From a virus (taxonomy: Duplodnaviria; Heunggongvirae; Uroviricota; Caudoviricetes), in IMG/VR virus record IMGVR_UViG_2751185968_000006: DNA of 12,040 nucleotides; one strand, written 5' to 3'. This document shows positions 5,179 to 12,040 of the stretch, one piece after another. The first letter of the stretch is position 1. The number at the start of each line of letters is the position of its first letter. The notes below the pieces were generated by a model, which did not search any database, had not been told where the DNA came from, and saw nothing but the letters and a program-made list of their open reading frames with translations. The translations under genes were made by a program, and so were the position numbers.

Positions 5179-6234
5179 TTAACCAATTTTGACGGTAACA
5201 AATTTGCGAATATCTGCCGGAACCGGCTGCGGTGCGCTGTGTGTCTGCACGTACTCAATCGCCGGATCGCCGTCCTCAATCCAGTTTTTCGGGTAGTACA
5301 TGTTTTGCGTTGCGCCCGTTCTTACCGCTTCCTGATCCATAATCGCACCATAGGCCACCAGCCCTTTATTGTTGGTGTTGCCCAGGACCAGCAAATCAGG
5401 CTCAAGGAAATATTTTTCGGTGCCGTCGCTGTCAGTGTATTTGCCGGAATAGACAATAAGAGCAATATCGCCCAGATAGCCTTTAAAGCTCACCACTTCG
5501 CCCAGGTTTTTACAGGCCATTTCTGCGGCGGATTCTGAACCACGGGAAAGATCGTACAGTTCACGGAATTTTTTAAAGCTGCGTAACGTGCGCCATACCT
5601 CAGCGCCCATAATCATGACGTTGGCGGGGCAACCTGCCTGATCTGCGTATAGTTCGATGTCATAGATTGGATCGTAAATATCTTTATCATGCTCGGACCA
5701 TTTTTTGCCGTCGGACTGCTCTATGATGTTTTTTTCCGGTATCTTCCAGTCGATTTCATAGCGTTCTATGCCTTCGCCCTCAATGATGTTTTTTCCGGTC
5801 GTTACCGCATTCACCGCCAGCCATTCCACGCGTGCCTTAATGGCGTTTATCTGGCGGCGCATGTTGCCAGTAATCAGGCGCATACGGCGATAGGTAGGGT
5901 CGTTAAGCTGTGCCGGATCTTCTCCAGCCATGCGCATGATGGTTTTCGTTGGATCGATTTCGTGCTTTGGCTTCATGTAGCCAGGTTTGATTGTGCTGGT
6001 TTCGTACCCTTTATCGCGCTGAACCTGGCTACCCACCATAGGCGAACAAAACGCCGACATGGTGACTTCTTCAATGTCCAGGGTATCCAGCATGATGTTT
6101 TGCGTGCTGAATGTCGCCACGTTCGGGAAAAACAGCGTGGTAAACAGAGGGCTGAATTTAAAATCCGCAATATCCCCGCGATTCAGGTACATAAAAAGCT
6201 GGTTAGTGTTAAGTGCCGTTGCTTTGCCTGCCAT
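5179..6234 (-). CDS. Major capsid protein, lambda gpE family (351 aa)
   Basis: Collinear similarity to lambda gpE as recalled: FKFSPLFTTLFF vs FKFDPLFLRLFF, PGYMKPKHEIDP vs PGYVKPKHEVNP, DPTYRRMRLITGNMR vs DPAYRRRRIIMQNMR, YKGYLGDIALIVYSG vs YKGMYGDVAIVVYSG, YPKNWIEDGDPA vs YPKNWVTTGDPA. Confidence 0.9.
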   Translation of the reverse strand: MAGKATALNTNQLFMYLNRGDIADFKFSPLFTTLFFPNVATFSTQNIMLDTLDIEEVTMSAFCSPMVGSQVQRDKGYETSTIKPGYMKPKHEIDPTKTIMRMAGEDPAQLNDPTYRRMRLITGNMRRQINAIKARVEWLAVNAVTTGKNIIEGEGIERYEIDWKIPEKNIIEQSDGKKWSEHDKDIYDPIYDIELYADQAGCPANVMIMGAEVWRTLRSFKKFRELYDLSRGSESAAEMACKNLGEVVSFKGYLGDIALIVYSGKYTDSDGTEKYFLEPDLLVLGNTNNKGLVAYGAIMDQEAVRTGATQNMYYPKNWIEDGDPAIEYVQTHSAPQPVPADIRKFVTVKIG

Positions 6235-6440: not shown

Positions 6441-6493
6441 AGTAAGAAATTCCTCTTCGACTAAAAAAATCATAACTGGATGTTTATCCAGTC

Positions 6494-6524
6494 CTGATTA
6501 TAATCAGAATTGCATTTTATGCAA
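6494..6524 (-). promoter_or_regulatory. Putative sigma70-type promoter for the capsid module, with both hexamers inside palindromes
   Basis: Minus strand: -35 TTGCAT (plus 6519-6524), 16-bp spacer, -10 TATAAT (plus 6497-6502). The -10 lies in the palindrome CTGATTATAATCAG (6494-6507) and the -35 in TTGCATTTTATGCAA (6510-6524). Confidence 0.4.
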
Positions 6525-6604
6525 TAATATTGAGTTATGTTGCAAATTATGAAATGATTATCCCGATCACGAACGCCAGTGCATCCAAAAACCTCATATG
6601 CAAA

Positions 6605-6642
6605 AGCCCGATAAGAACCCTCTGACCTTATCGGGCTTTTTT
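6605..6642 (+). terminator. Terminator-like hairpin with T6 tail on the plus strand
   Basis: Stem AGCCCGATAAG (6605-6615) / CTTATCGGGCT (6627-6637), followed by TTTTTT (6637-6642). No obvious plus-strand gene lies upstream. Confidence 0.4.
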
Positions 6643-6648
6643 GGGCGC

Positions 6649-6670
6649 AAAAAAGCCGGATTGCTCCGGC
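6649..6670 (-). terminator. Rho-independent terminator-like hairpin after the 74-aa gene; copy 2 of the repeated hairpin
   Basis: Plus strand AAAAAA-GCCGGA-TTGC-TCCGGC (stem 6655-6660 / 6665-6670); T6 follows on the minus strand. Confidence 0.45.
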
Positions 6671-6690
6671 TATGTGTGCTGTGTGCTGGA

Positions 6691-6915
6691 TCAGTCTCTG
6701 ATCTCTTTCAGAAATTCTATCAATGCATCTATCTGTTCAGGATTTACCGCCAGCATTTCACCGGATAGAGCACATCTCACAAAACCATGCTGATCCTTTT
6801 CAATCAGTGCGCCCGTCTCCAGGAATGCGCGGTAATCATTGATGCTCATCGTCTCCATGTTGTCAGCATGGTATTTATCACGCTGTTTTAATATCTCATC
6901 AAATTTCATCGGCAT
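6691..6915 (-). CDS. Hypothetical protein (74 aa), stand-alone cassette
   Basis: ATG at 6915 with an AGAGGAAA Shine-Dalgarno sequence. Bracketed by terminator hairpins at 7012-7033 (upstream) and 6649-6670 (downstream). Confidence 0.5.
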   Translation of the reverse strand: MPMKFDEILKQRDKYHADNMETMSINDYRAFLETGALIEKDQHGFVRCALSGEMLAVNPEQIDALIEFLKEIRD

Positions 6916-7011
6916 TGTTTTTTTCCTCTGTTGTGTCTGTTTGTTTCAGATAGTAACTATGCCTGACCGTGACGAAAACCCGGTAATGCGCCATACCGTT
7001 TCAACTGGTGC

Positions 7012-7033
7012 AAAAAAGCCGGATTTCTCCGGC
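7012..7033 (-). terminator. Rho-independent terminator-like hairpin after the PerC-like gene; copy 3 of the repeated hairpin
   Basis: Plus strand AAAAAA-GCCGGA-TTTC-TCCGGC (stem 7018-7023 / 7028-7033); T6 follows on the minus strand. Confidence 0.45.
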
Positions 7034-7040
7034 TGTTTGA

Positions 7041-7313
7041 TTAGCTGTCCTGGTAATTGCGCCATATTTCATCACCAGCACCATCTATACCCATTTCGGC
7101 ATAAGTGCGATCGACTGCCTTTTTCAGGTCTCCGAAATTATCCGGCGGCTCCGGTGCCCTCTGTGCCTTCCTTGAACATTCCAGCCGTCGCATCGTGATG
7201 TGATGCCGTTCCTTGTCTGTCTCCACCAGCTGCATGACTTCACCCCATCGCGCCGCCGCCCTCCGGTAAAAGCCTTTCGCCTCCAGTTCCTCCGCTATGC
7301 GGTCATGTACCAT
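7041..7313 (-). CDS. PerC-family-like transcriptional regulator (about 90 aa)
   Basis: Likely start at ATG 7313 with a strong GAGGGGGTG RBS. The protein MVHDRIAEELEAKGFYRRAAARWGEVMQLVETDKERHHITMRRLEC fits the PerC/Pch pattern (LE..G.WRRAA.RW...TD.ER) as recalled. Confidence 0.45.
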   Translation of the reverse strand: MVHDRIAEELEAKGFYRRAAARWGEVMQLVETDKERHHITMRRLECSRKAQRAPEPPDNFGDLKKAVDRTYAEMGIDGAGDEIWRNYQDS

Positions 7314-7323
7314 CGTCACCCCC

Positions 7324-7734
7324 TCAGAACGAAATATCATCACCGTAAGGGTCATCGCCTCCCGCTGGTGGCTGATTACCCTGTGTGCCTGTGGTTTTGC
7401 GTCTGTTCCCGCCTGGACGTGCCGCGCGGGCACTGATTACGCTGTCTGCGATAACCTGCCAGCCCTGCCGCGTTTCTCCGTTCTGTCCGGTCCACTGGCT
7501 TACCTGCATCGTGCCGGATACGCTGGCAACATCGCCTTTTTGATGTTTAGCCAGGAAGTCGGCCTGTTTGCCAAATGCGATGACCGATAACCATAACGTC
7601 GCCTGTCCGTCCTGTGCCTGGCTGCATGGCAAAGATACCGCCATACGCGCCAGCGTCATCGGTGTGCCCTTGCTGGTCTGTTTTACCTGCGGGTCGTCCA
7701 CCAGCCGCCCGTAAGCGGCTATCTGTGCCGTCAT
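7324..7734 (-). CDS. Single-stranded DNA-binding protein (SSB)-like, 136 aa
   Basis: N-terminus IAAYGRLVDDPQVK resembles the SSB OB-fold start (VILVGNLGQDPEVR), and the C-terminal acidic tip PYGDDISF resembles DDDIPF. The start overlaps the upstream stop as ATGA. Confidence 0.65.
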   Translation of the reverse strand: MTAQIAAYGRLVDDPQVKQTSKGTPMTLARMAVSLPCSQAQDGQATLWLSVIAFGKQADFLAKHQKGDVASVSGTMQVSQWTGQNGETRQGWQVIADSVISARAARPGGNRRKTTGTQGNQPPAGGDDPYGDDISF

Positions 7735-7982
7735 AATTCCACCTCTCCGGTTTTAACGTTGATGGTTGTTACCTGTTCCGCTTCGGCAATCTCCCGTTCT
7801 GTCAGCGTGGCAAAGTTTGCCGCCGCCGTGGTCATGAATGCGCTTATCAGGTCGGGATGTTCCTTCGCGTATCCTTCCCGCGTGTGGCGGTCTATCGTTC
7901 TGATTGCCACCTTTAAGGTGTGCTCAGTCATGTCTAACGCTTTATATTTTGGCTCTGTTCTGTCTCTGCGTTTTTGGGTCAT
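7731..7982 (-). CDS. Hypothetical protein (83 aa from ATG 7982; the supplied ORF extends to a GTG at 8012)
   Basis: ORF translationally coupled to the SSB-like gene. The upstream extension overlaps the iteron array, so the ATG at 7982 is the more likely start. Confidence 0.45.
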   Translation of the reverse strand: MTQKRRDRTEPKYKALDMTEHTLKVAIRTIDRHTREGYAKEHPDLISAFMTTAAANFATLTEREIAEAEQVTTINVKTGEVEL

Positions 7983-7993
7983 TTCTCGCAACC

Positions 7994-8181
7994 TCTCACT
8001 TTTTCGCCTCACTTTTTCAAGCGTCTCACTTCGTCGCAGTTGGGATTTTCGGTTTTTCTATGTGTGTGTTTTATAAGTATTTTTTTACCCCTCACTTTTG
8101 AGGATGTATACAGGTCGAAAAGTGAGGGAGAGCGGGCTAATTTTGGCCCTCTTTCTATCCCCCTCGCTTTTGCTCCTCACT
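7994..8181. repeat. Iteron array and AT-rich region: putative satellite origin of replication, immediately downstream of the replication gene
   Basis: Seven copies of CCTCACTTTT-like motifs: CTCACT at 7995-8000, 8008-8013, 8025-8030, 8091-8096 and 8176-8181, an inverted copy at 8118-8127, and a variant CTCGCT at 8163-8168. An AT-rich stretch lies at 8041-8087; copies 4 and 5 form 12-bp inverted arms 16 bp apart. Confidence 0.5.
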
Positions 8182-8182
8182 T

Positions 8183-8530
8183 TTATAGCGGCGCTACATC
8201 ATCCCCATCGATACTAATAACCCCATCTTTTTCCAGCTTGTACAGCCAGCGCCGGAAGTTTTTCATTTCATACCCCAGCTTTTTCATGTCATCACGTAAC
8301 AGCGGGATCGTGCACTTGTCGCCGTTCTGTGTGCGTGAACGGATGCACCCCCATAGCGCGGTATGGTTTTCCGTCTTGTTCCCTGCCTCCTCGATGCGCT
8401 CCAGTTCAACAGGAGGGCGCGGATCATCCACCACCACCAGCGACGTGATTAATTCACCGTCAGCGTCGGTAAAAAGCTCCACCACGCGTAAGTCATATGC
8501 GGCTTCTTTGAGTTCCTCCGCGTCCTTCAT
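8183..8530 (-). CDS. Replication protein, C-terminal fragment (second piece of a frameshifted primase/helicase-type gene)
   Basis: This frame stays open upstream of the annotated ATG to about 8638 and there encodes DESARGSSAFRASLDAEY, the expected continuation after the HHSGKD motif of RecA-like replication ATPases. Confidence 0.6.
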   Translation of the reverse strand: MKDAEELKEAAYDLRVVELFTDADGELITSLVVVDDPRPPVELERIEEAGNKTENHTALWGCIRSRTQNGDKCTIPLLRDDMKKLGYEMKNFRRWLYKLEKDGVISIDGDDVAPL

Positions 8531-9582
8531 TTTGGTGCATGAGATAACCAGCGCTTTGCTTCCTGCGTCCTCCCTGCGTATCCGGTATTCAGCATCCAGC
8601 GAAGCACGAAATGCACTGGAACCGCGCGCGCTTTCGTCTCATCCTTGCCGGAATGGTGAACCACCAGCACCGTGGCCCCTGTGCGTCGTTTCAGTTCGTC
8701 ACAACCACGGATAAACGCCCCCATATCACGGGAATCATTTTCATCATTCCCACCAAAGCAACGCGCCAGCGTATCCAGAATAATCATGCGTACAGGTTTA
8801 CCCGTTTCCCGCTCCACCTGACGGGCAGCGATAACCATTTCATCAACATCAAGCGGGGCAGCCGGAAAGATGGGGCGGTTTACCAGATACAGATTTTTCA
8901 CCTGCTCATCGTGCACAACCTCCCAGGCTTTTACACGACGCGGAACGCCGATACCGCCTTCACCAACCACATAGAGAACCGCACCATGTGCAACCCTGCG
9001 GCCTCCCCACTGGCGACCAGTGGCAACATGGCACGCCCACGATCCGGCAAGGAATGATTTATAGGACCCGCTAGCCCCGTATATGCTGCATAGCGATACC
9101 GCCGGAATAATCCCCTTAACCACGTAATCCAGTTGCGTGTCGTATCCGGTAGATCCAACGCTCATCGGTAGCGTGGTTTTTCGCTGGTGGTTTTTTTCTT
9201 CCACCGGCTCTTTCCCGCGCACCCGTTCCAGGTATTCGCGCCAGTTCTCCCGCATATGGCTGTGCATCCCTTCGGGGTAATAATTCGCATCAGTTACACC
9301 CGCCGCCGCCAGCTTGTGCGCAATGGCATTAATATTTGATGGCCTGATGTGGCCTGCCTTGTACAGCCGGACACAATAGCGCCCCTCGTCGATGATTCTC
9401 AGGTCTGCCAGTTCATCCAGTTGATCATCAGCCAGCACAACGGGAGGCACATTATCGCCAGCCAGTCGCCCGTCCTGTTCCTGCCACTGTTTTGCATGTG
9501 CCCAGGCATCACTACCCGCAAAAATAATGACTTCGGTCATCTTGTCGTAAGGCTGTTTTTTTAAGTTCGGTGCGCTTTTCAT
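8527..9582 (-). CDS. Primase/helicase-type replication protein (RepA-like P-loop ATPase), N-terminal fragment ending prematurely after a frameshift
   Basis: Walker A GASGSYKS, Walker B MIILDTLARCF, then VLVVHHSGKDE typical of RepA-like helicases. The frame then reads TKARAVPVHF... to a stop at 8527, just downstream of a (CG)4 tract at 8623-8631. Confidence 0.75.
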   Translation of the reverse strand: MKSAPNLKKQPYDKMTEVIIFAGSDAWAHAKQWQEQDGRLAGDNVPPVVLADDQLDELADLRIIDEGRYCVRLYKAGHIRPSNINAIAHKLAAAGVTDANYYPEGMHSHMRENWREYLERVRGKEPVEEKNHQRKTTLPMSVGSTGYDTQLDYVVKGIIPAVSLCSIYGASGSYKSFLAGSWACHVATGRQWGGRRVAHGAVLYVVGEGGIGVPRRVKAWEVVHDEQVKNLYLVNRPIFPAAPLDVDEMVIAARQVERETGKPVRMIILDTLARCFGGNDENDSRDMGAFIRGCDELKRRTGATVLVVHHSGKDETKARAVPVHFVLRWMLNTGYAGRTQEAKRWLSHAPK

Positions 9583-11764: not shown

Positions 11765-12040
11765 GGTAATGACTCCAACTTACTGATAGTGTTTTATGTT
11801 CAGATAATGCCCGATGACCTTGTCATGCAGCTCCACCGATTTTGAGAACGACAGTGACTTCCGTCCCAGCCTTGCCAGATGTTGTCTCAGATTCAGATTA
11901 TGTCGCTCAATGCGCTGAGTGTAACGCTTGCTGATAACGTGCAGCTTTCCCTTCAGGCGTGATTCATACAGCGGCCAGCCATCCGTCATCCATACCACGA
12001 CCTCAAAGGCCGACAGCAGGCTCAGAAGACGCTCCAGTGT
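11765..12040 (-). mobile_element. IS1-family insertion sequence, partial; right terminal repeat at 11765, continues beyond the right window edge
   Basis: GGTAATGACTCCAACTTACTGATAGTGTTTTATGTTCAGATAATGCCCGATGAC from 11765 matches the IS1 right terminal repeat as recalled. The insB frame follows on the minus strand. Confidence 0.9.
11780..12040 (-). CDS. insB: IS1 InsB transposase, C-terminal part (gene runs off the window edge)
   Basis: Minus-strand translation [86 protein letters not shown] matches the InsB C-terminus as recalled; it is in frame to the window edge. Confidence 0.85.

Follow-up and report, generated by a model that had tools for sequence, protein, structure and literature searches.

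Among phage-inducible chromosomal islands (PICIs) of Gram-negative bacteria, the prototype is EcCICFT073, which is induced, packaged and transferred (Fillol-Salom 2018), and PerC alleles on E. coli PICIs were already noted in 2018. In E. coli O157:H7, O-island 51 (OI-51; Sp7, CP-933C) carries a protein named PchE (ECs1588) in the literature. EPEC PerC, of the same Pfam family, is encoded in the perABC operon of the EAF plasmid pMAR7 and activates LEE1, whereas PchE and the PICI-borne homologues are reported not to do so. The group-1 Pch proteins (PchA/B/C), which are 104 aa long and encoded on lambdoid prophage DNA, relieve silencing by H-NS, StpA and Hha (PMC4764244). A further PICI-borne PerC-family gene, EcCIMP1_025 of PICI EcCIMP1, silences LEE1 in Citrobacter rodentium; its product shares only about 40% identity with the homologues of EcCIEDL933 and EcCICFT073, and its authors noticed a weak resemblance to the ANR family and proposed an ANR-like anti-activator mode for it (PMC11773190).

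We analysed a 12,040-nucleotide stretch of DNA (the window) whose minus strand holds two small open reading frames, at 7041-7313 (90 aa) and 6691-6915 (74 aa). An initial annotation had read both as stand-alone cargo cassettes between the replication and capsid modules of a satellite. That a PerC-like regulator is carried on a phage satellite is already established, the identical protein being PchE. For the locus as a whole, we regard as probable a joint explanation in which pchE belongs to an operon and modulates the host, and 6691-6915 is a separate one-gene unit of a satellite family that would code for a protein-binding modulator.

The minus-strand gene order of the island is an AlpA-like gene, a split RepA helicase (8183-9582), a small hypothetical gene, ssb (7324-7734), perC and the 74-aa gene, followed by a small gene, a lambda-E-type major capsid gene (5179-6234), a decoration protein gene, a 137-aa gene and a TerS-like gene. 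This is the order of O-island 51/Sp7 of O157:H7 and of EcCICFT073. Both EcCICFT073, a classical PICI, and EcCIEDL933, a capsid-forming one, have the same module order and the same hyp-ssb-perC operon as the window, with an HK97-type packaging module in EcCIEDL933 in place of the lambda E/D-type genes. We took an EcCICFT073-type PICI to be an element of about 12-15 kb with int, alpA, rep with an iteron origin, lambda E/D-type capsid genes, a TerS-like gene and a dedicated attachment site, and found in the window the AlpA-like gene, split RepA, iterons, capsid E, decoration protein and TerS-like gene. The insertion site is the tRNA-Pro between yejM and yejO, where an intact relative resides (locus L018), and thus differs from that of OI-51, which sits between roxA and phoQ. 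The intact relative has int next to tRNA-Pro; the integrase gene is absent from the window, and a minus-strand IS1 InsB-like fragment (11780-11998) sits at the expected integrase end. A plus-strand yejO-type autotransporter frame of 791 aa (230-2605) adjoins the island; the annotation of the closest complete genome (L018) lists yejO as a pseudogene that contains an internal stop. The window gave no match in Rfam and tRNA scans. The RepA frames, of 351 aa (8527-9582) and 115 aa (8183-8530), correspond to one protein of 465-466 aa in O157 OI-51 and other relatives. The split looks like a frameshift on sequence comparison and would probably leave the island replication-defective. With repA split and IS1 at the integrase end, the island is decayed, unlike OI-51/Sp7. 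The two small genes therefore mark the junction of the replication and capsid modules of a decayed EcCICFT073/OI-51-type PICI, with SSB and RepA upstream and capsid E downstream, which is where the initial annotation had put them.

The PerC-family assignment of 7041-7313, which had been made from the letters alone, held when we ran the profile search. The protein matches Pfam PerC (PF06069) with E=3.9e-43 and 146.1 bits, against a gathering cut-off of 22.6 bits, over model positions 1-89 of 90 and residues 1-89 of its 90, so that it is a full-length member. It is 100% identical to WP_000233304.1 of O157 OI-51, and the neighbours there are those of the window (hyp-ssb-perC, terminator, 74-aa gene, capsid E). 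By this identity to ECs1588, and by its location after ssb in an OI-51-type island, 7041-7313 is pchE, the group-3 PerC homologue already studied in E. coli O157:H7. The copy on the capsid-forming PICI of O157 strain PA20 is 90% identical to it. EPEC PerC (pMAR7; 89 aa) is 40% identical over its whole length and the 104-aa Pch type 42% over 90 residues; in an alignment that includes both, L10, E11, G14, R17-R18-A19, R22-W23 and C46 are invariant, and they have in common an N-terminal block, LE-KG-YRRAA-RW. At 90 aa, the window's protein lacks the 14-residue C-terminal tail of group-1 Pch and is borne by a satellite, not by a lambdoid prophage, so that it does not belong with PchA/B/C. The weak ANR resemblance described for EcCIMP1_025 is seen in the window's protein too, at 20.4 bits and E=3.3e-4 over residues 7-52 only; this falls short of the ANR family (NF033650) cut-off of 32 and points to likeness without membership. 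A sequence search of PDB chains with the same protein returned a match to PACSIN2, which we rejected as being at chance level.

Having its own ribosome-binding site (GGGGGTGACG-ATG) and terminator but no promoter of its own, perC is not the stand-alone cassette that had been proposed. It starts 10 nt after the ssb stop. In O157 PA20, 5' RACE and RNA-seq placed the start of the pchE transcript 675-700 nt upstream, 10 nt before ECs1586, and the transcript is polycistronic, ECs1586-ssb-pchE (PMC7369912). Transferred to the window, this start falls at about 7992, 679 nt from the perC ATG. The 10-nt gap and the RACE start transferred from the identical O157 locus place perC third and last in an operon of three genes, which is closed by the terminator at 7034-7017. 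The first gene (7731-7982) encodes an 83-aa hypothetical protein, a homologue of ECs1586 that matches phrog_1231, and its open frame reaches a GTG at 8012; the second is ssb (Pfam SSB, E=1.7e-16; TIGR00621). The hyp-ssb-perC order is common to PICIs with lambda-E-type capsids (E-capsid PICIs) and to capsid-forming PICIs. No canonical sigma-70 promoter is visible near 7992, a position at the edge of a minus-strand cluster of iterons (7994-8183), 3' of repA. Counted at no more than one mismatch, six copies of CCTCACTTT lie within these 190 nt, five one way and one inverted, and only two of the eight in the window lie outside. PICI origins are placed immediately 3' of rep (Fillol-Salom 2018), and the iteron cluster is the likely PICI origin on this sequence evidence. 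We propose that transcription of the operon begins at a promoter inside the iteron origin and stops at the hairpin terminator. RefSeq annotates a frame of about 40 aa across the perC terminator (L001 9479-9607, L002 6298-6413; about 6958-7086 in the window), labelled 'hypothetical protein' or frameshifted 'trigger factor'; this frame runs into both the hairpin and the 3' end of perC and has the look of an annotation artefact.

The 74-aa gene likewise has its own ribosome-binding site (AGAGGAAAAAAACA-ATG) and terminator, so that for both genes these sites, read directly from the sequence, stand as first noted. The terminators 3' of perC (7017-7034, minus strand; -13.2 kcal/mol, z -3.7) and 3' of the 74-aa gene (6654-6671, minus strand; -12.5 kcal/mol) are the upstream and downstream copies of one repeated hairpin, each a G+C stem followed by a T-run, in a region with 8 terminator-like sites where 2.2 would be expected. 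They are contained in direct repeats of 33 nt (6644-6676 and 7007-7039), which are 88% identical and 363 bp apart, and which bracket the 74-aa gene and its 100-nt leader as a 363-bp unit. A third and stronger hairpin at 6602-6640 (-21.7 kcal/mol, z -4.25) has T-runs on both sides, as in a bidirectional terminator, and is kept in E-capsid PICIs with or without the 74-aa unit. The GC content of the unit is 41-45%, compared with 55-62% for ssb-perC. The 74-aa frame is a real gene, because a dN/dS of 0.135 between E. coli alleles indicates purifying selection.

Of 5426 complete E. coli genomes, 539 have the unit, at 592 places; a search of 50,697 phage records found no copy. E-capsid PICIs share it with the capsid-forming PICI of the EcCIEDL933 type, the proteins being 99-100% identical (99% in EcCIEDL933-type elements), while the DNA beyond its terminator is unrelated between the two types. 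EcCICFT073 lacks it, and in three elements without the gene, one E-capsid and two capsid-forming, only one copy of the terminator comes after the perC stop. Elements without the unit are thus probably deletion derivatives formed via the two terminator copies, and E. coli elements would lose the unit cleanly, probably by recombination between these repeats. In a capsid-forming PICI of E. coli MFDS1006657 (L034 2867-3028), ssb and perC are reduced to remnants of 75 and 63 nt and the 74-aa gene is intact, which indicates that the two units can be lost independently. Since the 74-aa gene is absent from EcCICFT073, an element that is induced, packaged and transferred, and from other PICIs, it is dispensable for the basic cycle. 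No promoter was found in the 100 nt upstream of the gene, so that read-through of the perC terminator may be needed for its expression in E. coli. A homopolymer at 6917-6923 has seven A in the window and in OI-51 and six in the capsid-forming PICI copy (L002); six A put an upstream ATG in frame, which explains the 100-aa database entries for this gene, and relatives in other genera, which begin MPIT..., support the 74-aa start, with its ATG at 6915.

The 74-aa protein had been left unassigned, and it remains without an assigned function: its only match is phrog_1957, a family with no annotated function, with E=2.3e-42 (residues 1-74 on model positions 1-74 of 82), and no Pfam, NCBIfam or PADLOC family fits it. 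A literature search with ECs1589, the WP accessions and phrog_1957 found no paper. An exhaustive HMMER search of 1.8 billion representatives gave 21 matches, of which about 16 are distant relatives over the full length (roughly 30-42% identity), and a profile search added further members. The family has a conserved block, DHHGF...SGE.LA.N.EQ.D.LIE.L, and the N-terminus MPIT...; Pfam searches with all 18 members gave scattered sub-threshold matches only. One 1383-aa protein of the representative search (P0019), with seven matched stretches, was spurious (hhalign probability 0.1).

Relatives of the 74-aa protein, at 30-48% identity, are found in satellites of more than ten genera. Context was looked up for five of them, and in four cases (from Citrobacter, Klebsiella twice, and Ewingella) the island around the gene has an AlpA-like gene, and an integrase where the contig reaches far enough. 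In these islands, the homologue comes after a replication gene (RepA, DUF927 or D5-type primase) and before a capsid module of the HK97 type or with a protease-capsid fusion; on a 16-kb record, the fifth relative (Arsenophonus) comes after terL. With six closer family members as queries, a scan of one genome per species returned 12 loci, 11 in nine further enterobacterial genera and the twelfth a weak archaeal match. The full order is present in eight of the 11, namely rep, 215-280 nt, the homologue, a variable slot of 0.4-1.8 kb, and a capsid module with HK97 capsid, protease, portal, further head and HNH genes and terS. A ninth, on a short contig, has a primase fragment, the homologue and a capsid fragment. 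A BLASTP comparison at E<=0.01 with distant satellites returned no ssb, no perC and none of the remaining genes that the window has after its origin, and ssb, perC and the hyp93 gene were likewise missing from the loci of the scan, so that the products common to the window and these satellites are chiefly the replication protein and the 74-aa protein. A terminator-like hairpin lies 3' of the homologue in all three loci scanned for one.

The slot after the homologue holds unrelated genes, often on the reverse strand. In Kosakonia cowanii, it holds both proteins of the PADLOC candidate system PDC-M32 (L029 7373-8861; E=3e-139 and 4e-49), and a 170-aa protein recurs in the slots of four loci (L006, L016, L022 and L023). 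The variety of these genes indicates that the variable cargo position lies downstream of the 74-aa gene. In the Citrobacter and Klebsiella satellites L006-L011, a 637-aa gene fusing a ClpP-type protease with a capsid protein replaces the HK97 or lambda-E module. The homologue occupies the same position there, and the family is independent of the type of both the replication protein and the capsid. The homologue directly follows the origin elsewhere, and E. coli adds the GC-richer hyp-ssb-perC; we infer from this that ssb-perC is a lineage-specific addition, an extra operon that would have been inserted upstream of the 74-aa gene in E. coli elements. The description of the 74-aa gene as cargo is thus right in that the gene can be lost, as from EcCICFT073, but not in that it keeps a fixed position in more than ten genera with the variable slot downstream of it; it has the appearance of a gene proper to satellites, not of random cargo. 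We see in it a modest new lead, a family associated with satellites that keeps its position beside an accessory-gene slot. In PICIs and capsid-forming PICIs, it is a landmark that shows where to look for the cargo hotspot, and it gives a well-defined entry point to how these elements deal with their helpers.

AlphaFold with the single 74-aa sequence gave an unusable model (pLDDT 53), whereas an alignment of 27 family members raised the pLDDT to 88. In this confident model, three helices and three short strands precede a long C-terminal helix, and no fold match was found in the PDB or BFVD; sequence searches of PDB chains gave only E values above 0.3. All 27 members are acidic, with pI 4.6-5.9, which weakly favours a protein-binding over a DNA-binding factor. 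Small satellite proteins that bind helper factors include Ppi and PtiA of the SaPIs and epsilon of P4. Like these, the 74-aa protein is small, satellite-borne and encoded outside the structural operon; it has no sequence or fold similarity to them, and the comparison is an analogy. Our best guess is that it would act as a protein-binding modulator on a helper-phage or host protein. Specifically, we tentatively suggest that it belongs to an unrecognised satellite-specific family whose members bind such a protein and tilt the contest between helper and satellite, through induction, interference or counter-defence. We consider a DNA-binding regulator or a defence effector less likely than a protein-binding modulator, and both a satellite transcription regulator and defence or anti-defence cargo are live rivals.

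The first of these would make the 74-aa protein a small winged-helix-like regulator that binds DNA at the packaging operon or the ori-proximal promoter. Its conserved position between the origin and the capsid module would suit such a role, and the helix-helix-helix, three-strand, helix topology predicted by the model is compatible with a winged helix. The family profile also weakly matches residues 76-115 of the N.BspD6I large subunit, which we take to lie in the DNA-recognition region of that enzyme. This local match of 40 residues has E=2.5e-4 for the whole sequence, but the matched stretch alone scores 16.6 bits with an i-E of 0.05, and the fold search gave no confirmation, so that we regard it as unsupported. 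For membership of the winged-helix or HTH proteins we required a significant sequence or fold match and a basic surface, and these were not found for the 74-aa protein. We consider a DNA-binding role unlikely. Similarly doubtful is the proposal that the unit serves as exchangeable cargo, for instance an anti-phage or anti-defence factor. The unit is discrete, at 363 bp with a GC content unlike that of its neighbours, its presence varies among otherwise similar E. coli PICIs, and its family adjoins the slot that holds a candidate defence system in Kosakonia. However, the 74-aa protein has no match in PADLOC-DB at E up to 0.1, and none was found for any of six small PICI proteins searched, so that the suggestion of a defence-related factor gained no support from the known defence families. 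Hotspot cargo would not be expected to keep one position in more than ten genera next to a changing set of downstream genes, and 74 aa without an enzymatic motif are small for a stand-alone defence effector. We therefore keep to a protein-binding modulator as the tentative reading of this gene.

The other small gene codes for a protein whose effects are known from O157. PchE over-expression strongly represses csgD, curli, biofilm formation and HEp-2 adhesion, represses adhesins, and raises flhDC, fliC and motility (PMC6265319, PMC7369912), which substantiates the earlier suggestion that the element can alter host gene expression. These phenotypes come from plasmid over-expression, and the effect of deletion is slight (PMC6265319). 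The effect of PchE on adhesion is opposite to that of group-1 Pch. A rise in ler of more than twofold accompanies PchE over-expression. As summarised in PMC6265319 and PMC11773190, LEE1 was not activated by group-3 PchE or by the EcCIEDL933 and EcCICFT073 PerC homologues, and Iyoda 2004 and Porter 2005 are cited there for little or no effect of PchE on the LEE. These statements speak against the activation of a virulence regulon that had been suggested for the window's allele. PchE would instead be a small modulator of host master regulators, with csgD down and flhDC up, and not a LEE activator.

Family membership and identity with a known protein are firm, whereas the molecular mechanism of PchE is inferred. 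By analogy within the family, it may remodel H-NS-type nucleoprotein complexes or bind other regulators. A decrease in csgD together with an increase in flhDC does not match the pattern expected from simple H-NS antagonism, and the weak ANR similarity, together with the LEE-repressing EcCIMP1 homologue, leaves room for an anti-activator mechanism. In uninduced cells, pchE has a basal expression that drops 3- to 7-fold with an SOS-inducing antibiotic (PMC6265319). By homology with the identical O157 protein, the window's pchE would be expressed at a low level in the uninduced island and fall on SOS induction.

A role of PchE mainly in the service of the satellite, whereby it would relieve H-NS silencing of, or activate, the AT-rich capsid/packaging promoter just downstream, is improbable: in E. 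coli PICIs, whether E-capsid or capsid-forming, perC always lies directly upstream of the packaging module, H-NS anti-silencing is the mode of group-1 Pch (PMC4764244), and a leader of 32-37% GC with palindromes would suit it, but pchE expression falls rather than rises in SOS-inducing conditions, the capsid-operon leaders of the two PICI types are unrelated although their PerC proteins are 90% identical, perC is absent from capsid-forming PICIs of other genera, and one E. coli capsid-forming PICI has lost ssb and perC with its capsid module apparently intact. Modulation of the host is thus the reading of PchE that we retain.

The leader and promoter region of the capsid operon (6441-6600, minus strand) corresponds to the cargo slot, which is essentially empty in the window. 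Its three palindromes, CTGGATGTTTATCCAG (6476-6491), CTGATTATAATCAG (6494-6507) and TGCATTTTATGCA (6511-6523), are absent from capsid-forming PICIs and kept with small changes in another E-capsid PICI (L003). The second of them contains a perfect TATAAT, and from their sequence the palindromes may be operator sites.
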